Assembly (NCBI GenBank): GCA_051532055.1
Contig: JAOPTX010000036.1
Location: forward strand, 1 to 64,000
DNA from: Fibrobacterales bacterium
GTDB taxonomy: Bacteria > Fibrobacterota > Fibrobacteria > Fibrobacterales > JAOPTW01
DNA: 64,000 bases
Direction of reading: 5' to 3'
Shown: in pieces, positions 1 through 12,303 of the stretch
Numbering within the stretch: the stretch's first letter is position 1
Layout of the letters: every line of letters starts with the position of its first letter
Position numbers and translations under genes: made by a program
The notes under the pieces: model-generated
What the model was told of the DNA's origin: nothing
The model's database searches: none
What the model saw: the letters and a program-made list of their open reading frames with translations, nothing else

Positions 1-559
1 CTGCTCCTGCGCCAGTAGAAATGCTGAGAGAACCGGTAGTAAGGGCATCAATAGACATTGTGATGTTATCAACTCCCGCACTGTCATTTGCACCAATGTG
101 AAGTATTGATGATGATGATCCACTGGTTCCGAATGAATTTGCACCATTACCGATGAGGGTTTGTGTGTTATATTGGGTGGCATTTGCAATTCGGTCTATT
201 TCATCACCGAGGGCAACATACTCCTGTTGTAGATATGATCTATCAGTTGAAGTAAGAGTGTCATTGGCAGATTGTACAGAAAGTTCACGCATTCTTTGAA
301 GAATACTTGAAATCTCATTAGCCGCCCCTTCAGCAACTTGTAGTAGTGCAACGCCATCTTGTGCATTAGATTTTGCACGATTTAATCCTCTAACCTGAGT
401 ACGTAACTGTTCCGAAACTGAGAGCCCTGCGGCATCATCAGCAGCTCGGTTGATACGTAGTCCGGTAGATAGTTTTTCAAGTGATTTTCCCAGTCCATTA
501 TTTGCACTTGCAAGTGAATTCTGGGTTATCAACGAATTGATGTTGTGGTTAATACGCAT
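1..559 (-). CDS. fliC: Flagellin fla1 (partial; 3' end runs off the left edge)
   Basis: ATG at 557-559 gives MRINHNINSLITQNSLASANNGLGKSLEKLSTGLRINRAADDAAGLS..., near-identical to fla4/fla6; not in the ORF track because there is no stop in the window. Confidence 0.95.
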   Translation of the reverse strand, partial: MRINHNINSLITQNSLASANNGLGKSLEKLSTGLRINRAADDAAGLSVSEQLRTQVRGLNRAKSNAQDGVALLQVAEGAANEISSILQRMRELSVQSANDTLTSTDRSYLQQEYVALGDEIDRIANATQYNTQTLIGNGANSFGTSGSSSSILHIGANDSAGVDNITMSIDALTTGSLSISTGAGA

Positions 560-602
560 AATAAACCTCCATGTTTTTTTGCGTCAGCTGCTTCCGTGCA
601 GC
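560..602 (-). promoter_or_regulatory. CsrA-type binding hairpins in the fla1 leader
   Basis: GCTGC-ACGGAA-GCAGC (587-602) and AAAC-ATGGAG-GTTT overlapping the SD. Confidence 0.75.
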
Positions 603-630
603 CAGTAGGTGTAGTAACTCCTATTATGAT

Positions 631-658
631 AGATCGGAGGGGGGGGGAGGAAACTTTA
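631..658 (-). promoter_or_regulatory. sigma28 (FliA)-type promoter of fla1, with a G9/C9 tract in the spacer
   Basis: Minus strand TAAAGTTT-N12-TCCGATCT; consensus TAAAGTTT-N11-GCCGATAA. Confidence 0.8.
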
Positions 659-897
659 ATTGTTTTCTTAAGTTTTACCTTAAGGAGTGAATTAAGTTTT
701 GTGTTAGGTGCAATGAAGAATTATGAACGGTGTTAAATGTCGTAGTGTAATGTGAAGGATTGTAAGCATCAAAAGAGTATAGGTGGCTCTATGAGAAACA
801 CATCTGTGTGTTTGTTATAGCGGTACGAATGCTCAATGGCGAATTACAAAATCCCTGACTGATTTTTAATCATAGCTATTTAATGAGCTTGATTGTC

Positions 898-1764
898 CTA
901 GCCAATAAGCGCTAGTGCCGCTTGTGGTGTGGCGTTAGACTGCGCCAACATTGACGTAGAAGATTGGGTTAGTATTTGATTACGGGTGAGTTGAGTCGAT
1001 TCCGAGGCGAAATCGACATCACGAATGCGTGACTCCGCATCTTGAGTATTGAACTCTTGATTGTAGATGTTGTTCATAGCATGTTCAAGCCTATTTACAA
1101 AAGCACCCACATTTGATCGCATAGTATTGACTGATGTTATTGCTGAATCTATTGCGGTAATAGAGCTCATTGCAGCGCTTTGCGTTGAAACACCGATGGT
1201 AGTAGTGGCACCGGCTGCAGTAGAGATACCTAAGGAACCGGTAGTAATGGCATCAATGCTAATAGCAATGTTATCAATACCGGTACCGGCATTGACCCCA
1301 ATTTGTAGAATCGATGATGAAGACCCACTTGCGCCAAATCTGTTGGGCCCATCGCCGATCACTGTTTGAGTATTGTATTGAGTGGCATTTGCAATACGAT
1401 CTATTTCGTCTGCGAGAGCGACATACTCTTGTTGCAGGTAGCTTCTGTCAGTAGAGGTGAGAGTGTCATTCGCAGACTGTACTGAGAGTTCACGCATTCT
1501 TTGAAGGGTCGAAGAAATTTCATTGGCGGCGCCCTCTGCAATTTGCAGGAGAGCAACTCCATCTTGCGCATTAGCGCGCGCCCGCCCGAGTCCACGTATT
1601 TGTGTGCGGAGTTCTTCAGATACAGAGAGTCCGGCAGCGTCATCCGATGCGTGATTAATCCGTAACCCAGTCGATAACTTTTGCAATGATGAATTCAGGC
1701 TGCTATTGGCTTTGCCAAGCGCGTCCTGTGTAATCATAGAACTGATGTTATGGTTAATCCGCAC
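898..1764 (-). CDS. fliC: Flagellin fla2 (288 aa, GTG start)
   Basis: Flagellin N-terminal motif (LSTGLRINHASDDAAGL) and C-terminal motif (AESRIRDVDFASE...MLAQSN). Confidence 0.97.
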   Translation of the reverse strand: MRINHNISSMITQDALGKANSSLNSSLQKLSTGLRINHASDDAAGLSVSEELRTQIRGLGRARANAQDGVALLQIAEGAANEISSTLQRMRELSVQSANDTLTSTDRSYLQQEYVALADEIDRIANATQYNTQTVIGDGPNRFGASGSSSSILQIGVNAGTGIDNIAISIDAITTGSLGISTAAGATTTIGVSTQSAAMSSITAIDSAITSVNTMRSNVGAFVNRLEHAMNNIYNQEFNTQDAESRIRDVDFASESTQLTRNQILTQSSTSMLAQSNATPQAALALIG

Positions 1765-1768
1765 GTTC

Positions 1769-1860
1769 AGCCTCCTTGCCTCTTTGCGCCTGTAACTTCC
1801 ATGTTACAGGGGGTGTCTTACCCTATTAAAGAGTATCGGCGAGGCTCAAGTAAAACTTTA
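1769..1860 (-). promoter_or_regulatory. sigma28 promoter and CsrA hairpins of fla2
   Basis: TAAAGTTT-N12-GCCGATAC (1833-1860); CCTGTAAC-ATGGAA-GTTACAGG (1789-1810); GGC-AAGGAG-GCT at the SD. Confidence 0.8.
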
Positions 1861-1939
1861 GCGTTATTTCAGTATTTGCTTCAGGTTTTGCATCGTGTTG
1901 TTGAAAATATCAATGAGGAAATAAAAAAATCTAAAAACC

Positions 1940-1972
1940 AAAAAAGGGGCCGGCGAATGCCGGCCCCTTTTT
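1940..1972 (-). terminator. Intrinsic terminator after fla3 (bidirectional geometry)
   Basis: AAAAAGGGGCCGGC-GAAT-GCCGGCCCCTTTTT. Confidence 0.85.
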
Positions 1973-1993
1973 GAACATGGTATTGTTTTAAGG

Positions 1994-2854
1994 TTACCCG
2001 AGGAGTGCGAGTGCCCCTTGTGGGACAGCATTTGCTTGCGCTAACATTGATGTTGATGATTGGGTTAGTATTTGATTTTTGGTAAATCGTGTTGATTCGG
2101 TAGCAAAGTCTACATCTCTGATTCTCGATTCCGCATCCTGTGTATTAAATTCCTGATTGTTTATATTGTTTATTGCGTGCTCAAGTCGGTTTACGTACGC
2201 ACCCATATCTGAGCGCATTGCATTGACAGAATTGATGGCAATATCAAGGGACGAAATTGCTAACATTGCAGCAGATTGCGTGGATACACCCGATGCCCCT
2301 GTTCCACCTGTAGTAATAGAGAGTGACCCTGTCGTAATAGAATCAATGCCTATCGAGATGTTGTCGATTCCCGCTTGGTTGTTTGCACCAACGTGAAGAA
2401 TAGAGGCAATAGAGCCGCTTGCCCCAAAAGTATTTGCGCCATTCCCAATTAGAGTCATGGTATTGTATTGAGCAGAGTTTGCAATGCGGTCAATTTCATC
2501 GGCAAGTGCTGTATATTCTTGCTGTAGATAAGAACGATCGACAGAGGTAAGGGTATCATTCGCTGACTGAATTGAAAGCTCTCTCATTCGTTGTAATATA
2601 GAAGTGATTTCGTTTGCGGCCCCCTCTGCTACTTGTAAGAGGGCGACGCCATCTTGAGCATTGAGTTTGGCCCGAGCAAGTCCTCGTACCTGAGTACGAA
2701 GTTCTTCAGAAACTGAGAGTCCTGCAGCATCGTCTGCAGCTCTATTAATTCTGAGTCCAGTAGATAGTTTTTCAAGTGATTTGCCCAGGGTCCCATTAGC
2801 AGCGTAGAGTGCATTTTGGGTGATCATTGCCGAGATATTATGATTTATACGCAT
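1994..2854 (-). CDS. fliC: Flagellin fla3 (286 aa)
   Basis: Flagellin motifs; start moved from 2905 to the MRINHN ATG at 2852-2854, which has a GGAGG SD like its paralogs. Confidence 0.97.
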   Translation of the reverse strand: MRINHNISAMITQNALYAANGTLGKSLEKLSTGLRINRAADDAAGLSVSEELRTQVRGLARAKLNAQDGVALLQVAEGAANEITSILQRMRELSIQSANDTLTSVDRSYLQQEYTALADEIDRIANSAQYNTMTLIGNGANTFGASGSIASILHVGANNQAGIDNISIGIDSITTGSLSITTGGTGASGVSTQSAAMLAISSLDIAINSVNAMRSDMGAYVNRLEHAINNINNQEFNTQDAESRIRDVDFATESTRFTKNQILTQSSTSMLAQANAVPQGALALLG

Positions 2855-2857
2855 TGT

Positions 2858-2946
2858 AAACCTCCATGTTCTTTTGCGTGTTCGCCGCATCCTTGCGACT
2901 GTCATGTTCTATATCTCTTATATCGCTTATGAAAAGAATTACTTAA
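2858..2946 (-). promoter_or_regulatory. Degenerate sigma28 promoter and CsrA hairpins of fla3
   Basis: CGCA-AGGA-TGCG (2886-2897); AACATGGAGG at the SD; TTAAGT...GCGATAT promoter-like (about 2920-2946). Confidence 0.6.
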
Positions 2947-3032
2947 TACTTTTTGCTAAGAAAGTTTCAAAAAAACAAATAAACCCAAAAAACTTAAAGT
3001 TAAATATATTGTGAAAGTTAAGAATGTGAAGT

Positions 3033-3065
3033 AAAAAGTAAAGCACCGCCTGGGGGCGGTGCTTT
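3033..3065 (-). terminator. Intrinsic terminator after fla4
   Basis: Minus strand AAAGCACCGCC-CCCA-GGCGGTGCTTT followed by ACTTTTT. Confidence 0.8.
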
Positions 3066-3094
3066 GAAAAAATGATATAGGGTTAAGTGAATGA

Positions 3095-3961
3095 TTATCC
3101 AATAAGAGCGAGTGCTCCTTGTGGAACTGCATTTGCTTGTGCCAACATCGAAGTAGATGATTGAGTAAGAATCTGGTTTCTTGTGAAGCTGGTAGATTCT
3201 GTTGCAAAGTCTACATCTCTAATACGTGATTCCGCATCTTGAGTATTAAACTCTTGATTCGAAATATTATTCATTGCATGTTCAAGACGATTTACATAGG
3301 CACCCATGTCTGATCTCATGGTGTTCACTGATGTAATTGCAGTATCAATAGCGGTAATTGATGCCATAGCTGCAGCTTGAGTAGACACGCCTATTGTAGT
3401 AGTCGCGCCTGTTCCTGTTGAAATACCAAGTGACCCAGTAGTAAGAGCATCAATTGACATTGTGATGTTATCAACACCGACATTATCATTTGCACCAATG
3501 TGAAGGATTGAAGATGAAGAGCCGCTTGTACCAAAAGCATTCGCACCATTACCAATGAGTGTTTGAGTATTGTATTGAGTCGCATTTGCAATACGGTCGA
3601 TTTCATCACCGAGTGCCACATATTCCTGCTGTAGATATGATCTATCAGTAGAAGTAAGGGTGTCATTCGCTGATTGAACCGAGAGTTCTCTCATTCTTTG
3701 AAGAATAGAAGAGATCTCATTTGCTGCACCCTCAGCTACCTGTAAGAGTGCAACGCCGTCTTGGGCATTTGATTTTGCTCTACCAAGACCACGTACTTGT
3801 GTTCTTAATTGTTCGGAAACAGAGAGTCCCGCTGCATCATCTGCTGCTCGGTTAATCCGTAGACCGGTTGAGAGTTTTTCCAGTGATTTTCCAAGTCCGT
3901 TATTTGCCGCACCGAGAGCATTCTGGGTAATAAGTGAATTGATGTTGTGATTAATACGCAT
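3095..3961 (-). CDS. fliC: Flagellin fla4 (288 aa)
   Basis: Flagellin N/C motifs; near-duplicate of fla6. Confidence 0.97.
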   Translation of the reverse strand: MRINHNINSLITQNALGAANNGLGKSLEKLSTGLRINRAADDAAGLSVSEQLRTQVRGLGRAKSNAQDGVALLQVAEGAANEISSILQRMRELSVQSANDTLTSTDRSYLQQEYVALGDEIDRIANATQYNTQTLIGNGANAFGTSGSSSSILHIGANDNVGVDNITMSIDALTTGSLGISTGTGATTTIGVSTQAAAMASITAIDTAITSVNTMRSDMGAYVNRLEHAMNNISNQEFNTQDAESRIRDVDFATESTSFTRNQILTQSSTSMLAQANAVPQGALALIG

Positions 3962-3962
3962 T

Positions 3963-4066
3963 ATAAACCTCCATGTTTATTGGTATCCTGCATCCTTGCA
4001 GTTGTTAGGAAAGCAGTAAGTCTGAATTCCTTTTAAACATATCGACGGTAGTGATTTAAAACTTGA
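3963..4066 (-). promoter_or_regulatory. sigma28 promoter and CsrA hairpins of fla4
   Basis: TCAAGTTT-N12-GTCGATAT (4039-4066); CTGCA-AGGA-TGCAG (3988-4001); ATAAAC-ATGGAG-GTTTAT at the SD. Confidence 0.78.
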
Positions 4067-4185
4067 AGTAATTCTTACTAAAATGTTAAATATTGAAATT
4101 AAAACAGGAGTTATAGTTGTAGTAGGGGCCACTATAGCTCTTTAAAGCTATGGCCAGGGGGCTGGTTATTGTGCGGGGAGAGGGC

Positions 4186-4220
4186 AAAAAAATAAAGCCC
4201 CCTGTAGGAAGGAGACTTTA
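4186..4220 (-). terminator. Intrinsic terminator (sRNA A / fla5)
   Basis: TAAAGTCTCCT-TCCTAC-AGGGGGCTTTA followed by T7. Confidence 0.75.
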
Positions 4221-4282
4221 CTTTGGAGTTAGTACTGGGTGTTACCCGAGTTGTGCATCTGCGTATCAAACATATGCACAAT
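4186..4282 (-). ncRNA. Candidate antisense sRNA A (independent transcript or fla5 3'UTR-derived), complementary to the fla7 leader and start
   Basis: Hairpin TTGTGCAT-(15-nt loop)-ATGCACAA whose loop is antisense to ATGCGTATCAATCATA; a second block antisense to 8359-8384; ends in terminator 4186-4220; upstream TAAAGTTT-N12-CCCTATAT (4285-4312). Confidence 0.55.
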
Positions 4283-4395
4283 ATATATAGGGAGAATTTC
4301 GTTAAAACTTTAGACCTTTTTATATTTTGGTATGAACGAGGGAATAATGCTGTGCATAAAAAGAGGGATTGGTTATAACGATGGAGCGTTGATTA

Positions 4396-5988
4396 CTACC
4401 CGATAAGGGTAAGTGCAGCATTGGAAACACCATTAGCTTGCGAGAGCATGGCGGTTGCAGACTGTGTTAGGATCTGCTGTTTGGTAAATGCAGTAGATTC
4501 TGTTGCAAAATCAACATCGCGAATACGAGACTCTGCATCTTGTTGATTGAACTCTTGATTGTGTAAATTTTGAATTGAGTGTTCAAGGCGATTGATATGG
4601 GCGCCCACATCAGAGCGTTTTGTTGAGACTGTTGAGATAGCCGTTCCAACGACACCGATACTGGCGTGTGCACCAGTACGACTGCCAACTGAGGCGGCGT
4701 CAACTCCTAGGGCACCACCAGAAACAGATCCTAAGCCATCGAGATCCATTGTGTCGACATCTTCTACGGCATTTGCGCCAATATGCATTTGGAGTGCCTC
4801 ACCAATATCAAATGAGACTCCGGTAAAGCCTTCACCTGTGATAGTGGTTCCGACTTGATCACCAAATGCTGATGCATAGGCTGGGTCTCCAGTATTAAGA
4901 TTTTGTGCTAAAAACCCTGCCTCAAAAGCGGCATAAGTACCGCCAAAAGTTGCAGTTATATTTGCTTCGAGTTGTGCTGATCCACTAATGGTTGTTCCGT
5001 AGATGTCATCAATAGAGCCTGCGCCATTTTGGATAAACATTGCGGCAAGATACGCAGTTGCATAATCTTCATCTGAACCACTCCATGTATTATGGTCAAT
5101 ACTTCCGCCACTTGCAAATGATGACGCCGCTATAATTGCAGCAGTATTGGCGTAACTCCCTGCTAATAAGCTGGTAACCCGAGACTCACCGCCAGCATTA
5201 CTTGCTTCAGCAGCACCTTCGGAGAACCATGTGGGTGGCTGATGTCCATTGATATACTGAAGGGCATGGGTCATTTCGTGAGAGAGAATATCTTGGGCGG
5301 AAAAAACGTTACCGAGGTGATTCATGGGTCCGTCAGCGTTGGCATCCCCTGTTACCTGGGCATTAAAATCATCTAAATCGAGGTTAATGACCGCTTGAGT
5401 ACCGTCAGATCCGCCAGTGGCTAAGAGACCTGCTTCACCATCCATGTTTTCGCCAGTGACGTGGAGGTTGCCAAAGGCCGATAGATTGCTATAGGCATTT
5501 TGTACCGTGGCAGCCGCCCCGGGAAGCCAGTCATTTGTCAGTTTGTCTATTAATTCTTCTGCGTTATCAGCTCCGCCACGTAATACTTGAATGCCATTAT
5601 ATTGTGTAGCATCATTTATGCGAGTCAATTCTTCTGAAAGAGCAGTGAATTCTTGATCGATATATGAGCGGTCTTCATCAGTAAGGGTGTCACTTGCAGA
5701 TTGTATTGCTAATTGGCGTTGGCGCTGTAAAATAGAGTGAGCTTCATTCATCGCCCCTTCAGCAACTTGAAGAAGGGCGACGCCATCCTCCGCATTGTGT
5801 CGGGCACGATTATTACCTCTGATTTGAGATCGCAGTTGTTCGGAAACAGAGAGTCCGGCAGCATCATCAGAAGCGCGATTAATCCGCAAGCCCGTAGAGA
5901 GCTTATGCAGAGAATCACCCAAAGCATTGTTCGCTGAATTAAGCGAATTCTGGGTAATAAGTGCGCTGATGTTGTGATTGATCCTCAA
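4396..5988 (-). CDS. fliC: Flagellin fla5 with inserted gluzincin metallopeptidase domain (flagellinolysin-like), 530 aa, TTG start
   Basis: Flagellin N/C domains flank a ~240-aa insert with SHEMTHALQ (HExxH, 5266-5280) and PTWFSEGAAE (5206-5229). Confidence 0.9.
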   Translation of the reverse strand: MRINHNISALITQNSLNSANNALGDSLHKLSTGLRINRASDDAAGLSVSEQLRSQIRGNNRARHNAEDGVALLQVAEGAMNEAHSILQRQRQLAIQSASDTLTDEDRSYIDQEFTALSEELTRINDATQYNGIQVLRGGADNAEELIDKLTNDWLPGAAATVQNAYSNLSAFGNLHVTGENMDGEAGLLATGGSDGTQAVINLDLDDFNAQVTGDANADGPMNHLGNVFSAQDILSHEMTHALQYINGHQPPTWFSEGAAEASNAGGESRVTSLLAGSYANTAAIIAASSFASGGSIDHNTWSGSDEDYATAYLAAMFIQNGAGSIDDIYGTTISGSAQLEANITATFGGTYAAFEAGFLAQNLNTGDPAYASAFGDQVGTTITGEGFTGVSFDIGEALQMHIGANAVEDVDTMDLDGLGSVSGGALGVDAASVGSRTGAHASIGVVGTAISTVSTKRSDVGAHINRLEHSIQNLHNQEFNQQDAESRIRDVDFATESTAFTKQQILTQSATAMLSQANGVSNAALTLIG

Positions 5989-5991
5989 AAC

Positions 5992-6082
5992 CTACATCCG
6001 TGTTACTAAAAAGAAACGCCTTCCGCTTCCATGCGGATTTAGGCCCTATTGCATTGATCGGCCGCCTAGAGTAAAATCTTGA
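5992..6082 (-). promoter_or_regulatory. sigma28 promoter and CsrA sites of fla5
   Basis: TCAAGATT-N12-GCCGATCA (6055-6082); TCCGC-ATGGAA-GCGGA (6022-6037); ACACGGATGT (5994-6003) next to the start. Confidence 0.8.
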
Positions 6083-6183
6083 GCAAAAATTTAAAAAAAG
6101 TTAAGCAAAATACTCATAAGAAAGCGAAGGCAAAACTTAATGCGGTGCATGAGCGAGGACCGCTTGTAATAAGTGAAAAAACT

Positions 6184-6208
6184 AAAAAGACCAGCTGATG
6201 CTGGTCTT
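6184..6208 (-). terminator. Intrinsic terminator after fla6
   Basis: AAGACCAGC-ATCA-GCTGGTCTTTTT. Confidence 0.8.
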
Positions 6209-6236
6209 AAATGGATTGTCTTTTGAATGAGAATGG

Positions 6237-7103
6237 TTATCCAATAAGAGCGAGTGCTCCTTGTGGAACTGCATTTGCTTGTGCCAACATCGAAGTAGAT
6301 GATTGAGTAAGAATCTGGTTTCTGGTGAAGCTGGTAGATTCTGTTGCAAAGTCCACATCTCTAATACGTGATTCCGCATCTTGAGTATTAAACTCTTGAT
6401 TCGCAATATTGTTCATTGCATGTTCAAGACGATTTACATAGGCACCCATATCTGATCTCATGGTGTTCACTGAGGTAATTGCCGTATCAATAGCGGTAAT
6501 TGATGCCATGGCTGCTGCCTGTGTTGAAACGCCAACAGTCGTTCCTGCTCCTGCTCCAGTAGAAATACTGAGAGAACCAGTAGTAAGGGCATCAATAGAC
6601 ATTGTGATATTGTCAACGCCAACATTGTCATTTGCACCAATGTGAAGGATTGAAGATGAAGAGCCGCTTGTACCAAAAGCATTCGCGCCATTGCCAATGA
6701 GTGTTTGAGTATTGTATTGAGTCGCATTTGCAATACGGTCGATTTCATCACCGAGTGCTACATATTCTTGCTGCAGATATGATCTATCAGTAGAAGTAAG
6801 GGTGTCATTCGCTGATTGAACCGAGAGCTCTCTCATTCTTTGGAGAATAGAAGAGATCTCATTTGCCGCACCCTCAGCAACCTGTAAGAGTGCAACGCCA
6901 TCTTGAGCATTTGATTTTGCTCTATTAAGACCACGTACTTGTGTTCTTAATTGTTCGGAAACAGAGAGTCCCGCTGCATCATCTGCTGCGCGATTAATCC
7001 GTAGTCCGGTAGAGAGTTTTTCTAGTGACTTTCCAAGTCCGTTGTTAGCGGAGCCAAGAGCATTTTGAGTAATTAATGAATTGATGTTGTGATTAATACG
7101 CAT
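6237..7103 (-). CDS. fliC: Flagellin fla6 (288 aa)
   Basis: Flagellin N/C motifs. Confidence 0.97.
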   Translation of the reverse strand: MRINHNINSLITQNALGSANNGLGKSLEKLSTGLRINRAADDAAGLSVSEQLRTQVRGLNRAKSNAQDGVALLQVAEGAANEISSILQRMRELSVQSANDTLTSTDRSYLQQEYVALGDEIDRIANATQYNTQTLIGNGANAFGTSGSSSSILHIGANDNVGVDNITMSIDALTTGSLSISTGAGAGTTVGVSTQAAAMASITAIDTAITSVNTMRSDMGAYVNRLEHAMNNIANQEFNTQDAESRIRDVDFATESTSFTRNQILTQSSTSMLAQANAVPQGALALIG

Positions 7104-7106
7104 AGT

Positions 7107-7193
7107 AAACCTCCATGTTTTGCGTGTTTGCCACTTCCGTGTGGCACTTAAGTCTCTAATAGAAGTATCGGTAAAACCTAAAGGAGATCTTTA
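7107..7193 (-). promoter_or_regulatory. sigma28 promoter and CsrA hairpins of fla6
   Basis: TAAAGATC-N13-ACCGATAC (7165-7193); TGCCAC-ACGGAA-GTGGCA (7129-7146); AAAC-ATGGAG-GTTT at the SD. Confidence 0.78.
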
Positions 7194-7318
7194 GAAAAAA
7201 ATAGAGAGAGGCGATAAAAGCTGGATATTTTTTAGAAAGCTAAAGTGGAACTAAATGAAGAATCTAGAGTGAAACCTGGGGCTGATGTTAATGATTGTTT
7301 TTTGGTTGATTTGAGGCG

Positions 7319-7343
7319 AAAAAAAAAGGGTCATTTCTGACCC
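7319..7343 (-). terminator. Intrinsic terminator after fla7
   Basis: GGGTCA-GAAA-TGACCC followed by T9. Confidence 0.85.
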
Positions 7344-7384
7344 CTCGTGCATTAAAGTTCTTTTTAAAAAGTGTACTGTCTTAT

Positions 7385-8242
7385 TTATCCGATAAGAGCA
7401 AGTGCACTTTGTGGTGCTGCATTTGCTTGTGCCAACATAGAAACAGATGACTGGGTTAATATTTGGGTTCTGGTAAACTCAGTTGATTCAGATGCGAAAT
7501 CAACATCACGAATTCGAGATTCAGCATCTTGCGAGTTAAACTCTTGGTTCGAAATATTGGTCATTGCATGTTCAAGTCTATTCACATAGGCGCCAATATC
7601 TGAACGCATCGAGTTTACTGAGGCAATTGCAGAGTCGAGTGTGGTTATTGCTGTTGTTGCTGCAGCTTGTGTTGAAACACCGACAGCCCCCGTACCGCTG
7701 GTACTAATACTGAGTGACCCCGAGGTCAGTGCAGTCATCGATATAGTGACGCTGTCAGCGGAAGTCGCATTAGCCCCAATATGGAGTACTGATGATGATG
7801 AACCAGAGGCGCCAAATGAGTTGGTTCCTCCATCTATGAGTGTTTGCCCATTGTATTGTGAACTGCTTGAGATACGGTCAACTTCTGCAGCAAGCGCTGA
7901 GAACTCTTGATCGAGATAGCCGCGGTCTGTTGAGGTGAGGGTGTCATTCGCCGCTTGAACCGAGAGTTCCCGCATTCTTTGGAGAATTTCTGACATCTCA
8001 TTTGCAGCACCTTCAGCAACTTGAAGAAGCGCTACGCCATCTTGTGCATTGGCCTTTGCGCGGCCCAGACCTCTGATTTGTGAACGTAACTGTTCAGAAA
8101 CAGAGAGTCCCGCAGCATCATCAGCGGCTCTATTGATTCTAAGACCAGTTGAAAGTTTTTCGAGTGATTTACCCATATTGGTATTTGCATTCGCAAGTGA
8201 GTTTTGGGTAATAAGTGAATTGATGTTATGATTGATACGCAT
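7385..8242 (-). CDS. fliC: Flagellin fla7 (285 aa)
   Basis: Flagellin N/C motifs; closest to fla8. Confidence 0.97.
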   Translation of the reverse strand: MRINHNINSLITQNSLANANTNMGKSLEKLSTGLRINRAADDAAGLSVSEQLRSQIRGLGRAKANAQDGVALLQVAEGAANEMSEILQRMRELSVQAANDTLTSTDRGYLDQEFSALAAEVDRISSSSQYNGQTLIDGGTNSFGASGSSSSVLHIGANATSADSVTISMTALTSGSLSISTSGTGAVGVSTQAAATTAITTLDSAIASVNSMRSDIGAYVNRLEHAMTNISNQEFNSQDAESRIRDVDFASESTEFTRTQILTQSSVSMLAQANAAPQSALALIG

Positions 8243-8243
8243 G

Positions 8244-8420
8244 ATAAACCTCCATGTTTATTTCTGAACAAAGCAGTGGCCCTACACCATGCAGTGTTCT
8301 ATGCATTTGTGCCACATCCATGTGGCGGGTTTTGTGTTTGGGACTGGTCTGGATTGATACTCCGTAACAGCCTGTATTAACTCCTATTTCATATTTCGGA
8401 GAGGCTTACTGAAATCTTTA
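8244..8420 (-). promoter_or_regulatory. sigma28 promoter and long (~145 nt) leader of fla7 with CsrA hairpins
   Basis: TAAAGATT-N12-TCCGAAAT (8393-8420); GCCACA-TGGA-TGTGGC (8311-8326); ATAAAC-ATGGAG-GTTTAT at the SD. Confidence 0.75.
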
Positions 8421-8545
8421 ATGTTTTTTTTGCAAAAAAAATGAAAACTGTTTATTATATGAAATAAATGGCCAATGCGTCCCATACGGGCCATATATAA
8501 AAAGAGAATTAGAAAGGGGATTTTGAAATGCTGGAGGTAGAAATT

Positions 8546-8617
8546 AAAAAAGCCCAAACGGAGCGGGCCTTTTTAAAAAGATTTGTGTACGGAAATACAC
8601 ATCAACCTTTAATGCAT
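8546..8617 (-). ncRNA. Candidate sigma28-driven antisense sRNA B (~70 nt) complementary to the fla8 leader
   Basis: Lies after the fla8 terminator; own promoter TAAAGTTT-N12-AACGATAT (8623-8650); hairpin TGTGTA-TTTCCG-TACACA; terminator GGCCC-GCTCCGTTT-GGGCTTTTTT; no ORF; 15/15 and 14/15 complementarity to 9687-9701 and 9627-9641. Confidence 0.7.
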
Positions 8618-8669
8618 TTATAATATCGTTTTATGACAATTAAAACTTTAGAGAAATATGAGAGAAAAT

Positions 8670-8699
8670 AAAAAAGACCGAAATTTTCATTTCGGCCTT
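8670..8699 (-). terminator. Intrinsic terminator after fla8
   Basis: AAGGCCGAAAT-GAAA-ATTTCGGTCTTTTTT. Confidence 0.85.
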
Positions 8700-8746
8700 C
8701 GGAGTTAATACCTGCGTATCAGGTATTGGTGTATTGTAGGGTACTT

Positions 8747-9604
8747 TTAATTGAGGAGTGCAAGGGCAGACTGCGGAGCAGTATTTGCCTGCGCTAACAT
8801 AGAGACAGATGATTGAGTCAAAATCTGAGTTCTGGTGAACTCGGTTGATTCTGAAGCAAAATCCACATCACGAATCCGTGATTCCGCATCTTGTGTGTTA
8901 AACTCCTGATTGGCGAGATTGTTGATTGCATGTTCGAGTCTATTCACATAGGCGCCAACATCAGATCTCATGGTATTTACTGAGGTGATTGCAGTATCTA
9001 TTGACGATATTGCCGTGAGTGCAGATGCTTGAGTTGATACGCCCACCGCACTTGTTCCTGATGTAGATATAGCAAGTGATCCAGTAGTGAGGGCGCTCAT
9101 TGATATACTAATACTGTCTGAAGTTGTTGCATTTGCACCGATATGGAGTACCGATGATGATGAACCGCTCACACCAAAAGAGCTGTTGCCGCCATCGATG
9201 AGGGTCTGTCCATTGTACTGAGAGCTATTGGATATTCTATCGACTTCTGCAGCGAGTGAACTAAACTCCTGATCGAGATATCCACGATCAGTTGAAGTCA
9301 ATGTATCATTTGCTGCCTGTACAGAGAGTTCTCTCATTCTTTGCAAAACTTCAGAAATCTCATTTGCGGCTCCTTCCGCTACTTGTAGTAGCGCAATGCC
9401 GTCTTGTGCATTTGCTTTTGCACGACCGAGCCCTCTGATTTGTGAACGTAATTGCTCTGATACTGAGAGTCCTGCAGCATCATCTGCAGCTGTATTGATT
9501 CTGAGTCCAGTAGAAAGTTTTTGTAGTGATTCGCCCATTTTGCCATTCGCATGAGCAAGCGCGTTCTGAGTTATCAACGAATTGATATTGTGATTGATAC
9601 GCAT
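8747..9604 (-). CDS. fliC: Flagellin fla8 (285 aa)
   Basis: Flagellin N/C motifs. Confidence 0.97.
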   Translation of the reverse strand: MRINHNINSLITQNALAHANGKMGESLQKLSTGLRINTAADDAAGLSVSEQLRSQIRGLGRAKANAQDGIALLQVAEGAANEISEVLQRMRELSVQAANDTLTSTDRGYLDQEFSSLAAEVDRISNSSQYNGQTLIDGGNSSFGVSGSSSSVLHIGANATTSDSISISMSALTTGSLAISTSGTSAVGVSTQASALTAISSIDTAITSVNTMRSDVGAYVNRLEHAINNLANQEFNTQDAESRIRDVDFASESTEFTRTQILTQSSVSMLAQANTAPQSALALLN

Positions 9605-9750
9605 TATAAACCTCCGTGTTTATAAAGATGTGTACTTCCGTGTATTGGTGATATTCGTATTATTTCCGTAAACGAGTATCTCTGTTTGCATTAAAGGTTG
9701 AGGATATGAAGTCCTCCTTAAAATTATCGGGAGGATTATCAAAATCTTTA
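9605..9750 (-). promoter_or_regulatory. sigma28 promoter and leader of fla8 with several ANGGA sites
   Basis: TAAAGATT-N11-CCCGATAA (9724-9750); TAC-ACGGAA-GTA (about 9633-9644); TTATAAAC-ACGGAG-GTTTATAA at the SD; TACGGAAATA (9661-9670). Confidence 0.8.
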
Positions 9751-9869
9751 GAGAAAACTTTAAATAAAGTTATGGAAAAGAAATAAACTTTTTAAAGTGC
9801 CTTTAATTGCGATTAAAAGAGGTTTTTTTAGAGAGTGAGATAGGGGGTTTGTGACACCGATAACGATTA

Positions 9870-10364
9870 TTATCGGTGTTGTTCTATGGTTGGCTCCTCG
9901 GAACCTTCATCTGGAGTAGTAAAATCCGAATGATTAAATTCAGAATATATATTGGAACGGAGATTTCTTTGTGATTCAAACTCCTCACGGTCGATATTCT
10001 GCATAAAGTACAGGTCTTTAGAAAAGCTACGGAGCATAATTTGTTCTTGTACTACTTTATCGAGTTCAGAATCATCAAAACCGAGTATGAATATTGAGGA
10101 TTGATCATCATCACCAAAAATTTCAAATTCTTCCATAATATTTATACTGGTGTCTGCAGATGGTTGATTTTCCAGTGTTGTGGCTACTGGTGTTTGAGAG
10201 GGTGAATTTAGGGCGACTGTATCGGGAGCTGTTGATGATGTTTGTGACTCTATAGGGGCCTCAAGTATTGGCGGTATCGAGTCTGTGGCAAGAGAATCAC
10301 TCTGCTCTGCATGGGCGATGGTTATCACACAGATGATTACGGGTATGAGGTATTTAATAATCAT
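9870..10364 (-). CDS. Hypothetical exported acidic protein
   Basis: ATG overlaps the tsaD stop (TAATG); hydrophobic N-terminus ending AHA; S/T/P-rich linker. Confidence 0.6.
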   Translation of the reverse strand: MIIKYLIPVIICVITIAHAEQSDSLATDSIPPILEAPIESQTSSTAPDTVALNSPSQTPVATTLENQPSADTSINIMEEFEIFGDDDQSSIFILGFDDSELDKVVQEQIMLRSFSKDLYFMQNIDREEFESQRNLRSNIYSEFNHSDFTTPDEGSEEPTIEQHR

Positions 10365-11371
10365 TACTTTCCAAGCTCCAGCCATGGGGTTACTGCATCG
10401 TCAGTTAAATGTAACATATTTGAATTTTTTTTGAGTTGCCCGATTGCTGCGATCATTGCTCCATTATCGGTGCAATACTCAAAGTCAGGGAAAAAGGCCG
10501 TAAAATTATTTTTCTTACCGAGGGTTTCCATTCTTTTTCTCAGATGACGATTTGCTGAAACGCCACCACATACAACAATATGGCTCAGTCCTGTTTTTTT
10601 AAGGGCCCACATGCTCTTTTCGCACAATATATCAACGATAGCCTCTTCAAGTGAGGCGCAAATGTCTTTGAGGTTTTCTTGAATGAACTCTTCACTGTTG
10701 TCCTGGACATATCTAAGGACGGACGTTTTGAGTCCAGAGAATGAGAATTCACCAGTGTCTTGTTTTGCGAAGCTTCGAGGGAATCGAACAAATTTTCTGT
10801 TGCCGCCATCGGCAGCTTTGCCAACAACGGGGCCGGCGGGGTAGCCCAAGCCAAGGAGTTTTCCACATTTATCGAATGCTTCACCGGCTGCGTCATCACG
10901 AGTACGACCCAGTAGTTCATATTCAAAGTTTTCTTTCACTAAGGTAAGTTCAGTGTGGCCGCCTGAAACAGTAAGGCAGCAAAAAGGTGGTTGAATGTCT
11001 GGATTGCTAAGGAAGACTGCAGCGATGTGCCCTTCAAGGTGGTTAATGCCAATACTGGGTATTTGAAGGTCGTGGGCAAGGCCTTTTGCAAATGATGCGC
11101 CTACAAGTAGAGGACCCATGAGTCCAGGGCCTCGGGTATAAGCAATTTGGTCGATGTCATTAATGGTAAGACCAGATGTTGTCAGGGCCTCATCCACTAT
11201 TGCAGAAATTTTTTCAAGGTGGGCACGGGCGGCAATTTCAGGAACGACGCCCCCAAAAGAACGATGTTCTTTGATTTGAGAATAAAGACAGTTTGCGTAT
11301 ACTTTTAGGGTGTCATCGACGATACCGCAAGCAGTTTCGTCACATGAGCTTTCTATGCCAAGGGTAATCAT
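10364..11371 (-). CDS. tsaD: tRNA N6-threonylcarbamoyltransferase TsaD
   Basis: LGIESSCDET, GGVVPEIAARAH, NHLEGH, VSGGHT, DDAAGEAFDK, CTDNGAMIA. Confidence 0.97.
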   Translation of the reverse strand: MITLGIESSCDETACGIVDDTLKVYANCLYSQIKEHRSFGGVVPEIAARAHLEKISAIVDEALTTSGLTINDIDQIAYTRGPGLMGPLLVGASFAKGLAHDLQIPSIGINHLEGHIAAVFLSNPDIQPPFCCLTVSGGHTELTLVKENFEYELLGRTRDDAAGEAFDKCGKLLGLGYPAGPVVGKAADGGNRKFVRFPRSFAKQDTGEFSFSGLKTSVLRYVQDNSEEFIQENLKDICASLEEAIVDILCEKSMWALKKTGLSHIVVCGGVSANRHLRKRMETLGKKNNFTAFFPDFEYCTDNGAMIAAIGQLKKNSNMLHLTDDAVTPWLELGK

Positions 11372-12303
11372 ATCAAGGTATCCTGAATGGTTGTTGAATC
11401 AACTATAAGTTCAAATTCTTTCGGGGCGAGGTCAAAAGATTGTATTTCACCCTGTATACTCACTGTTGGATTCAATTTCTTTTTGTTTTCTATGCTAAAA
11501 CGATTGTACTCAATAAAGAGTGTAATGTCATCGGGCGTTAAGGTCTCGAGAATGCTTTTTGCACCGGTAATGGTGATCGAAGCACTACTGGGTACTAAGC
11601 GATAGGTAAAGGAATCTTTTGGGGAATTCAGTAGTGAAACAGCAATATCAGAAAATGGTTTAATTCTTAATGGCTCGATAGCGATAGTTATTTTAGTTTG
11701 GTTTTCTTTTTGTTCAATAAGACTTGGAAGTGGAGAAAGGGCCACTTGCATAGTGGTGTCGTGATTCAGTGCACTCAAGGTTATGGGGGCAGTTGGAATT
11801 TCGAAAATTTTTGTTACGAGGCTCCGGGCCCCAGATATGGTGATATATTTGGGTGAAATGAGAGGTGGTTTACTGAGAATGAAGTTGGGGGAGGGCTCGA
11901 CGGTTACTCTATTGCGTACGGGTATTTGTTTTGATATTCTCGTTTCAGCATTGATTACTAAGTTCTCATCGTTAAAAATTGTAATAAGAGTCACGTCACC
12001 CGTAGGTGGCTTCATAAAATGACGTTTATGAGGGAAAATGGTGTTTTCACCAAGCTTTAAGTTGGCGAGGTCAAAGAGAAAATGTCCTGGAGTCTCTCTA
12101 TTTAAAATGAGGTCCTTCCCTTTGCCTCTGATTTCAGCCTTGATGGTCTTTGGAAACTGGTTCATTAAAGCCATGGCCCGTGGAATATTTTGAGTTATAA
12201 CGGGAAGTTCAGCGGTGTAAGTATACTGCCTTTCGGACATCACATAGAACCAAAGCAATAAGGCACAGAAAAAGGCGGCAAATTTTAAGGTCATGTTCTT
12301 CAT
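11368..12303 (-). CDS. YbbR/CdaR-like membrane-anchored protein
   Basis: N-terminal ALLLWFYV anchor and repeated YbbR-like segments (PKTIKAEIRG, PKYITISGARS, PSSASITITGAKS). Confidence 0.7.
   Translation of the reverse strand: MKNMTLKFAAFFCALLLWFYVMSERQYTYTAELPVITQNIPRAMALMNQFPKTIKAEIRGKGKDLILNRETPGHFLFDLANLKLGENTIFPHKRHFMKPPTGDVTLITIFNDENLVINAETRISKQIPVRNRVTVEPSPNFILSKPPLISPKYITISGARSLVTKIFEIPTAPITLSALNHDTTMQVALSPLPSLIEQKENQTKITIAIEPLRIKPFSDIAVSLLNSPKDSFTYRLVPSSASITITGAKSILETLTPDDITLFIEYNRFSIENKKKLNPTVSIQGEIQSFDLAPKEFELIVDSTTIQDTLI

Follow-up and report, generated by a model that had tools for sequence, protein, structure and literature searches.

Does an array of paralogous flagellin genes encode, between and behind its genes, RNAs that control the individual paralogues? 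This question is raised by the first part of the window, i.e., the 64,000-nucleotide stretch of DNA analysed here, which is the start of contig C36 in the assembly (5.17 Mb in 181 contigs, 94% complete) of an uncultured marine Fibrobacterales bacterium. Eight flagellin genes, fla8 to fla1, occupy positions 1-9604, every one on the minus strand, and seven of them are complete; all the features of the array described below lie on that strand. An earlier note, made from the letters of this DNA, had noticed that spacer and 3' elements on the strand of the flagellin mRNAs are reverse-complementary to regulatory segments of specific paralogues, and had proposed that the array encodes its own post-transcriptional circuit. 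We found this observation to be largely real and confirmed it in part, and its interpretation is partly supported. Indeed, conserved units on the mRNA strand, specific complementarity and purifying selection speak for such a circuit, whereas the link drawn from fla5 fails, and the setting of stoichiometry, order or mutual exclusion among flagellins remains conjecture. We give a probability of about 0.55 to the reading that the array encodes trans-acting antisense RNAs, which control individual flagellin paralogues post-transcriptionally.

The first candidate is a predicted small RNA (sRNA) of about 72 nucleotides (nt), sRNA B (8617..8546), located between fla8 (9604..8747), the first gene of the array, and fla7 (8242..7385). 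The intrinsic terminator of fla8 was placed at 8673..8700 by a terminator scan and by folding, and since sRNA B comes after it, it forms a separate unit. A sigma28-type promoter precedes sRNA B (8624..8650, TAAAG-N17-CGATA by pattern match). In the predicted fold of this RNA, nt 2-16 stay single-stranded as a 5' seed and are followed by a hairpin, with UUCC in its loop, and by a terminator. The presumed target is the leader of fla8 (9605..9717, about 113 nt as judged from sequence and fold), which starts with a 5' hairpin and carries its Shine-Dalgarno sequence (SD) at 9617..9612. The match between sRNA B and this leader, from which the question arose, proved to consist of three sites. At site 1, nt 2-16 of sRNA B (8616..8602) are the perfect 15-nt complement of 9701..9687. 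At site 2, nt 15-28 (8603..8590), i.e., the 5' arm and loop of the sRNA B hairpin, pair over 14 bp, with one G-U, with 9643..9630, which holds the second ACGGAA motif of the leader. At site 3, nt 21-33 can alternatively pair with 9674..9662, with 10 contiguous bp, in a leader hairpin (9681..9651) that exposes the other ACGGAA in its loop. The 15-mer of the fla8 leader is also its longest exact match in the assembly, save a 19-nt sense match to the ribosome-binding region of fla4; matches of 14 nt number 14.

The second candidate, sRNA A (4282..4186, about 97 nt), lies after fla5 (5988..4396) and upstream of fla4 (3961..3095). It is predicted to fold into a 5' hairpin, whose loop (4276..4260) is antisense to the flagellin start-codon region, followed by a middle segment (4245..4225) antisense to the 5' end of fla7, and by a terminator (4214..4198). 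Its promoter (4286..4312) is sigma28-like, with CTATA instead of CGATA as -10 element and a -35 context identical to that of sRNA B. As the terminator scan found no terminator-like site between the fla5 stop codon and the sRNA A terminator, sRNA A is probably also the end of the fla5 3' untranslated region (3'UTR). A third element, a hairpin in the fla8 3'UTR (8698..8726, between stop codon and terminator), likewise shows complementarity to two regions, the 5' end of fla7 and the start-codon region of flagellins. The core of sRNA A and this fla8 element share two blocks, TGATACGCAG and GTAYTAACTCCRAAG, and are paralogous. Both match the same two sites of fla7, as had been claimed: one at the 5' end of its leader (8384..8364; the leader spans 8243..8388 and counts about 144 nt), the other just inside the coding sequence (8241..8226). 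sRNA A pairs at 18 of 21 positions of the first site (4245..4225 with 8384..8364) and, through 4272..4260, with 8241..8229 at the second, while the fla8 element pairs without mismatch at both (8711..8701 with 8384..8374, 11/11; 8721..8713 with 8241..8233, 9/9). The start-codon site is not specific to fla7, an identical 14-mer being present in fla8. A 14-codon ATG-to-TAA frame is also found inside sRNA A (4274..4230); it is not preceded by an SD and its start codon lies in the hairpin stem.

Could such complementarity arise by chance? We compared nine elements (the two sRNAs and seven 3'UTRs) with the eight leaders, using dinucleotide shuffles of the elements as controls. In an ungapped site score (GC 3, AU 2, GU 1, mismatch -4; 500 shuffles per pair), the best sites reached 35 for sRNA B-fla8 (null 19.1 +/- 2.9, p = 0.002), 32 for sRNA A-fla7 (21.0 +/- 3.0, p = 0.010) and 26 for fla8 3'UTR-fla7 (18.9 +/- 2.6, p = 0.014); the opposite strands of the same elements score only 19-28. 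When two non-overlapping sites were summed, sRNA B-fla8 obtained 65 and sRNA A-fla7 61, values that none of 700 family-wise shuffle replicates attained (null 45.5 +/- 3.0, maximum 58). When both strands of the whole assembly were compared with the sRNA B body, no two-site target scored higher than the fla8 leader, which came first among 127 clusters with 70, the runner-up having 63. A generic inverted-repeat finder did not return the relevant pairs among its 25 longest, and an Rfam search of positions 1-12000 gave 11 weak matches with E-value reporting, no family coming near its gathering score.

An independent energy measure pointed to the same partners. We used ddG, i.e., the minimum free energy (MFE) of the dimer minus those of the monomers, which charges for the opening of internal structure, and shuffled only the sRNA bodies. 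By this measure, sRNA B prefers fla8 (-14.5 kcal/mol, against -2.1 to -4.4 for the other leaders), sRNA A prefers fla7 (-18.8, with fla8 at -8.6, fla1 at -8.2 and the rest at -1.3 to -3.4), and so does the fla8 3'UTR element (-17.3, against -2.5 to -6.4 for the other seven leaders). Thus, the three named pairs range from -14.5 to -18.8 kcal/mol and the other 21 regulator-leader pairs from -1.3 to -8.6. Not one of 119 replicates held three pairs of -14.5 or lower (none in 111, one in 7, two in 1), so that the pairings stand out from dinucleotide-shuffled controls by both measures. The net energies of the sites after opening costs are -13.8, -10.2, -8.6 and -5.3 kcal/mol. Whole-length RNAduplex energies were discarded, as they do not discriminate: nearly every pair obtains about -30 kcal/mol through long internal loops and GC-rich terminators.

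The second line of evidence is conservation. Both long spacers were searched in 41 genomes, namely 40 relatives of the order and the source genome itself. The spacer between fla5 and fla4 was found in 2 of the 41, and that between fla8 and fla7 in 3, counts that include the source genome and, for the latter, one 30-nt match at chance level. The sole relative with these spacers is a genome of the same genus, G001, whose array has the same eight genes and is likewise cut off by the end of a contig. Searches with fla5 in genome contigs returned only the G001 record and a Lachnospiraceae flagellin at 54%, and in metagenome contigs four loci at 48-59% identity, none of them related. The two genomes are well diverged: only 950 of 1516 four-fold degenerate sites in ten shared genes are identical (63%), and the spacer stretches between the units are 50-63% identical. 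On the contrary, 70 of the 72 nt of sRNA B and 93 of the 97 nt of sRNA A are identical (96-97%), which bears out the conservation in relatives that the earlier note would have had us look for, in the one relative found. The leaders follow the same pattern, with 111/113 for fla8, where both changes fall in the linker just 3' of site 1, and 143/146 for fla7; the fla8 3'UTR is identical up to the terminator loop. The edges of the conserved blocks are sharp, since the spacer from sRNA B to the fla7 promoter (8427..8545) retains 75/119.

The promoters of the two units and the nature of the substitutions agree with the predicted elements. For sRNA B, the -35 element (8/8) and the segment from -10 to the start (14/14) are invariant, while the spacer between them keeps 6/11; for sRNA A, the corresponding figures are 16/16 for the -35 region, 10/10 and 7/12. 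Hence, the -35 and -10 of both are unchanged and the promoter spacers are only 55-58% identical. All six substitutions in the sRNAs are compatible with the predicted structure or pairing. Both changes in sRNA B turn an A-U pair into G-U outside the seed. In sRNA A, one compensatory change replaces a G-C by an A-U pair, another a G-C by G-U, and one puts a U-A pair with the fla7 leader in place of an A.A mismatch. Two changes lie in the pairing segment of sRNA A, and the duplex with fla7 passes from 18/21 here to 19/21 in G001, with a predicted ddG of -27.5 in G001 versus -18.8 here. By this comparison, the sRNA units are under purifying selection. The 14-codon frame mentioned above shows one synonymous and one amino-acid change (Gln to Leu) in G001.

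In which regulatory context would such RNAs act? Each flagellin gene is preceded by a sigma28-type motif, T[AC]AAG-N16-18-CGAxA, fla3 being a poorer fit (TTAAG at -35). The TAAAG-N17-CGATA spacing of the sRNA B promoter recurs at five of the eight flagellin promoters; fla8 and fla6 are off by one base, and fla3 again fits less well. The fla8 promoter (9724..9750, TAAAG-N16-CGATA by pattern match) is identical to that of G001 at 37/42 positions over 9759..9718, and the fla7 promoter (8394..8420, also a pattern match) at 38/38 over 8426..8389. Measured from these predicted promoters only, fla7 and fla8 do have the longest leaders of the array, as previously remarked (about 144 and 113 nt versus about 55-71 for the others). 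The leaders carry ACGGAA, AUGGAA or AAGGAU motifs, mostly in predicted hairpin loops, plus GGAGG at the SD, and GGA motifs in loops and at the SD are typical of CsrA-controlled flagellin leaders. The genome encodes FliA, as well as CsrA and FliW, whose genes are adjacent on contig C10, just downstream of a ninth flagellin gene, so that a CsrA/FliW-type control of these leaders would have its predicted sites and its proteins at hand.

On the other hand, the 3' elements of the array did not all behave as the earlier note had supposed. The match that it saw between the fla7 3'UTR and sRNA B exists, and is only moderate. A block of this 3'UTR (7348..7376) repeats CTTTAATGCA from site 1 of the fla8 leader and is complementary to nt 2-11 of sRNA B over 10 bp (8616..8607 with 7358..7349), which makes it a candidate partner or decoy of sRNA B. 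It is identical to G001 at 29/29 positions, against 15/32 for the adjoining fla7 terminator. The ddG with sRNA B is -14.2 kcal/mol, as low as in 1 of 164 shuffles, the other 15 sRNA-element pairs being at -4.4 or weaker; in the simple score, however, the best site of this pair is a shared palindrome (p = 0.025 uncorrected). The supposed pairing of a fla5 3'UTR loop with the shared SD had to be abandoned, as it amounts to only 6 nt (CTCCAT/ATGGAG), does not exceed shuffles against the eight leaders (p = 0.39-0.90) and lies in a stretch that is not conserved (53/75). We also rejected a pairing of the fla7 3'UTR with any leader, which is no better than shuffles (p = 0.47-0.99), and an interaction between sRNA A and sRNA B (24 versus 19.3 +/- 2.8, p = 0.06-0.075; ddG 0.0).

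Some information on expression and population variants comes from one DNA run (X1) and one metatranscriptome run (X2) of the same sample, in both of which the locus is present in the form of stored contigs. RNA contigs of run X2 cover fla8 (8735-9641), fla7 through to its 3'UTR block (7344-8208) and, in part, fla6, fla5 and fla4; one reaches 8692, in the fla8 3'UTR region. One 3x RNA contig, a G001-like variant, spans 4185-4289, i.e., sRNA A, and continues for 82 nt past its terminator. It carries three G001-type substitutions and G001-type sequence past the terminator, and therefore a G001-like species co-occurs in the same sample. No contig of run X2 lies over sRNA B (8617..8546), part of the fla7 leader or the non-conserved spacers; the library was random-primed and is uninformative for a 72-nt RNA. 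In run X1, a DNA variant contig skips the 105 bases 8431..8535 (depth 252 versus about 780, the shorter side measuring 30 nt). This deletion falls exactly within the non-conserved spacer and leaves sRNA B and the fla7 promoter intact. The variant thus belongs to a co-occurring strain without this spacer.

Taken as trans-acting antisense RNAs, the elements would work as follows. sRNA B, a separate gene between fla8 and fla7 with a sigma28-type promoter, would bind the fla8 leader at -97..-83 and at two ACGGAA CsrA-site-type motifs, by means of the unpaired 5' end and the UUUCCGU hairpin loop, and would thereby alter fla8 translation, CsrA access or mRNA stability. sRNA A would be made from its own sigma28-like promoter and would end at a terminator probably shared with fla5. 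Together with the fla8 3'UTR element, it would cover the extreme 5' end and the start-codon region of fla7, which should block 30S binding and so repress fla7. The conserved fla7 3'UTR block, which copies part of the sRNA B target, may titrate sRNA B. The promoters of the two units suggest that they would be primary transcripts, and terminator hairpins followed by U runs are predicted for both. This reading is carried by pairings that exceed those of shuffled sequences, by predicted energies that are specific for the targets, by the motifs of promoters and terminators and by the purifying selection; we further counted in its favour the fliW-csrA operon, FliA, the deletion confined to the non-conserved spacer, the RNA contigs and the precedent of FlaX in Vibrio. 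From these, we infer transcription of the units in the form described, pairing inside the cell and the sign that each regulatory effect would have.

Several points count against trans-acting control. The order of the two main sRNA B sites rules out one coaxial helix, and simultaneous binding is uncertain; these sites may be alternatives or may bind two sRNA molecules. Taken as single best sites, the matches are modest family-wise over the 72 pairs (3000 replicates; p = 0.031 for sRNA B, 0.10 for sRNA A), and that between the fla8 3'UTR and fla7 alone is not above chance in the simple score (family-wise p = 0.24). The two-site statistic was picked after the sites had been seen. Genome-wide, the sRNA A-fla7 cluster (61) merely ties for rank 2-4 of 224, and the sRNA B body has 32 single sites scoring at least 35. 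The bare sigma28 pattern is not rare (10 genome matches versus 18 expected), and the -10 element of sRNA A does not have the G of the CGA core. There is only one relative, and every paired block is identical in both genomes, which leaves no room for covariation between the partners. The RNA contigs give no strand, ends or levels and do not show transcription. Finally, neither Hfq nor a ProQ/FinO-domain protein was matched in the genome, which is 94% complete, so that their absence is not established.

The most serious of the alternatives, unlikely as we judge it, is that the elements act in cis, either as second promoters with attenuators for fla7 and fla4, in the manner of MotR, which precedes motA in E. 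coli, or by pairing of 5' and 3'UTRs within one long transcript. Both units do sit directly upstream of a flagellin gene and end in terminators, the sole RNA contig over sRNA A runs 82 nt past its terminator, and readthrough from MotR into motAB has been described (PMC10578931). Attenuation leaves unexplained, however, why the seed of sRNA B matches the upstream fla8 leader and not fla7. Moreover, what lies from each unit to the following promoter is not conserved and is missing from a natural variant, and every downstream gene has its own conserved promoter. The pairing energies can be read both ways: as an isolated duplex, the fla8 3'UTR element pairs with its own fla8 start region (-23.0) about as well as with that of fla7 (-23.4), whereas as whole molecules it favours the fla7 leader (-17.3) over the fla8 leader (-6.0).

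Going beyond control in trans by antisense RNAs, a joint reading can be drawn up, which we hold to be quite unlikely as a whole. In it, sRNA B would mask the CsrA sites of one paralogue: with the 5' seed and the UUUCCGU loop placed on the ACGGAA motifs of its leader, fla8 would escape the FliW-CsrA assembly checkpoint or change its response to it; the fla8 3'UTR would repress fla7 and the fla7 3'UTR would titrate sRNA B. The result would be an RNA-only toggle between fla8 and fla7, the two flagellins at the head of the array, laid over a protein partner switch, operating without Hfq or ProQ.

Are the complementary blocks perhaps functionless, i.e., relics of duplication or inversion of paralogous flagellin 5' regions, whose conservation comes from low divergence or gene conversion? 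By our reading of the sequence, the fla8 3'UTR element, once reverse-complemented, is similar to a flagellin SD-to-start region, of which the 5' portion of the fla7 leader seems to be a degenerate copy. The kinship of sRNA A with the fla8 3'UTR element fits such an origin too, and so does a recombination-prone repeat array, with its contig break inside fla1 and a chimeric fla6/fla4 RNA contig. We nevertheless consider this improbable. Low divergence does not agree with the 96-97% identity and its sharp edges against 50-63% flanks and 63% four-fold sites; the sRNAs are single-copy, and hence there is no donor for gene conversion. The promoter hexamers were kept while the spacer between them diverged, the substitutions preserve structure, and the two sRNA B sites, being permuted relative to the fla8 leader, do not amount to a plain inverted copy.

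Very improbable, in our view, is that the 15-bp inverted repeats 9701..9687 and 8616..8602 are the recombination sites of an invertible fla8 segment subject to phase variation. These repeats do flank the whole of fla8, each just downstream of a sigma28-type promoter. Against this stand the DNA contigs of runs X1 and X3, in which no strand-changing joint was seen (such contigs drop rare variants), the identical orientation in G001, and the second and third sRNA B sites and the sRNA A pairings, which inversion does not explain; nor was a recombinase recognised beside the array, where the adjacent 171-amino-acid (aa) open reading frame (ORF) matches no family, no dedicated recombinase search having been made. 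Least probable of all is an action through protein, as a CsrA-titrating decoy or through a small peptide from the 14-codon frame in sRNA A: the genome does encode CsrA and the frame differs from G001 by just two changes, but neither sRNA contains a GGA motif as a Csr/Rsm-type decoy would, the Rfam RsmY- and RsmZ-like matches (21 bits versus cut-offs of 57 and 44) are found elsewhere and on the opposite strand, and the frame has neither SD nor free start codon.

How do trans-acting RNAs of this kind compare with what is known? The earlier note knew of no described equivalent, a claim that does not hold, as Vibrio FlaX with FlaY and FlaZ (Vcr77/Vcr78), sRNAs that originate from flagellin 3'UTRs, was already known (PMC11879080; bioRxiv 10.64898/2026.08.28.747715). 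FlaX pairs at three sites in the flaB 5'UTR and changes the composition of the filament (PMC11879080); in V. parahaemolyticus, it activates some flagellins and represses others, and FlaY, itself derived from a flagellin 3'UTR, may sponge it (bioRxiv 10.64898/2026.08.28.747715). Its authors suggest that it may be general for flagellin mRNAs to keep other flagellins low by way of RNAs from their 3'UTRs (PMC11879080). By analogy, this is a close functional counterpart and the closest known system. As in Vibrio, a locus with several flagellin genes encodes the RNAs immediately behind such genes, the fla8 element and sRNA A (after fla5) lying in or at flagellin 3'UTRs; several distinct stretches of a paralogous flagellin 5'UTR, the ribosome-binding region among them, are predicted to be paired; another RNA from a flagellin 3'UTR may act as a sponge for the first; and the proposed purpose is the order and composition of the filament flagellins. 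Unlike FlaX, which is cut by RNase E from a sigma54-driven mRNA, the two units here have their own sigma28-type promoters. They also belong to another phylum, and some of their targets are ACGGAA motifs of CsrA-site type, fliW and csrA being present in the genome; FlaX depends on ProQ, for which we found no ProQ/FinO-domain match in this genome; and everything here is known from prediction alone.

Two further groups of sRNAs are instructive. In E. coli, sigma28-dependent sRNAs exert feedback on the synthesis of flagella, and one of them, MotR, is a unit with promoter and terminator upstream of a flagellar operon, as here (PMC10578931). E. coli has, however, one flagellin gene and thus no control between paralogues, and the documented pairings of its sRNAs, which depend on Hfq, are inside the fliC coding sequence and in ribosomal protein mRNAs (PMC10578931). 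In C. jejuni, a CsrA-FliW bacterium, FlmR (CJnc170) is a 47-nt, unprocessed, FliA-dependent sRNA that recalls the present units, and together with FlmE (CJnc230) it tunes flagellar gene expression (PMC11187230). Unlike here, the targets reported or suggested for these two are flgM and class II genes, and they are not encoded in a flagellin array (PMC11187230).

The protein side of the comparison is the FliW-CsrA system. The present genome resembles the bacteria that use it, by its adjacent fliW and csrA beside a further flagellin gene and by its GGA motifs in leader loops and SD. FliW-CsrA control acts through protein and RNA only, whereas here an RNA with a complementary UUCC loop would sit on the same motifs. 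An sRNA that covers the CsrA sites of a flagellin leader is not known to us from the literature, our search of which was not exhaustive. The leader of B. subtilis hag is under FliW-CsrA control. The same holds for that of flaA in C. jejuni (PMC4894983). A literature search for Fibrobacter, flagellin and small RNA returned nothing relevant by title. Judged from prediction and one comparative genome, the system described here differs from the known ones in its lineage, in the sigma28 promoters of its units, in the CsrA-type motifs among its targets and in the lack of detectable Hfq or ProQ.

The rest of the array deserves a short description. The seven complete flagellins, all of which match Flagellin_N and Flagellin_C of Pfam, are fla8 (285 aa, of which 282 are identical in G001), fla7 (285 aa), fla6 (7103..6237), fla5, fla4, fla3 (about 2854..1994) and fla2 (1764..898); fla1 starts at 558 and is cut by the contig end. 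As the contig of G001 ends in this gene too, the array may be longer. Two more flagellin genes lie outside it (G000:C10:98811-99647 and G000:C2:44584-45270 in the source genome). fla5 is a 530-aa flagellin with a metalloprotease-like insert, which contains HExxH and matches the NCBIfam flagellinolysin model NF033876 (E = 8e-35, 121 bits, below the 205-bit cut-off); it starts with TTG behind a weak SD, and 518 of its 530 aa are identical in G001. Proteolytic flagellins have been described (PMC5595980 and PMC7643111). For fla3, the longest ORF would start at 2905; the flagellin domain and the SD-plus-ATG common to the paralogues point to 2854, and the upstream ATG falls in the leader.

Some other features touch the regulation of single genes. 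A run of nine C (639-647) separates the -35 and -10 of the fla1 promoter and is interrupted by a G in G001; slippage in this run could change the promoter spacing and make fla1 phase-variable. Just upstream of the fla4 -35, an AT-rich block (4067-4099) is identical to G001 at 30 of 33 positions, unlike the fla4 promoter spacer and early leader, which diverge, and it may be an UP element or a regulator-binding site. Between tsaD and the array, the 171-aa ORF (9870-10385, minus strand) has no match among the families of Pfam and NCBIfam; its counterpart in G001 measures 150 aa and shares only 73% identity with it.

What would trans-acting flagellin RNAs mean for this organism and its relatives? 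The locus offers concrete sequences for heterologous reporters, namely two sRNAs, three sites in the fla8 leader and two in fla7, which matters as the organism is uncultured. Since fla5 is flagellinolysin-like and its 3'UTR carries sRNA A, the dose of the enzymatic subunit may be tied to the same circuit. If true, the arrangement would solve in a general way the problem of putting many co-transcribed flagellins in order, here through sigma28-promoted units acting on CsrA-type sites. It looks like an independent version of the flagellin cross-regulation of Vibrio, and a non-homologous arrangement with the same logic in Fibrobacterales would mean that this solution has evolved more than once.

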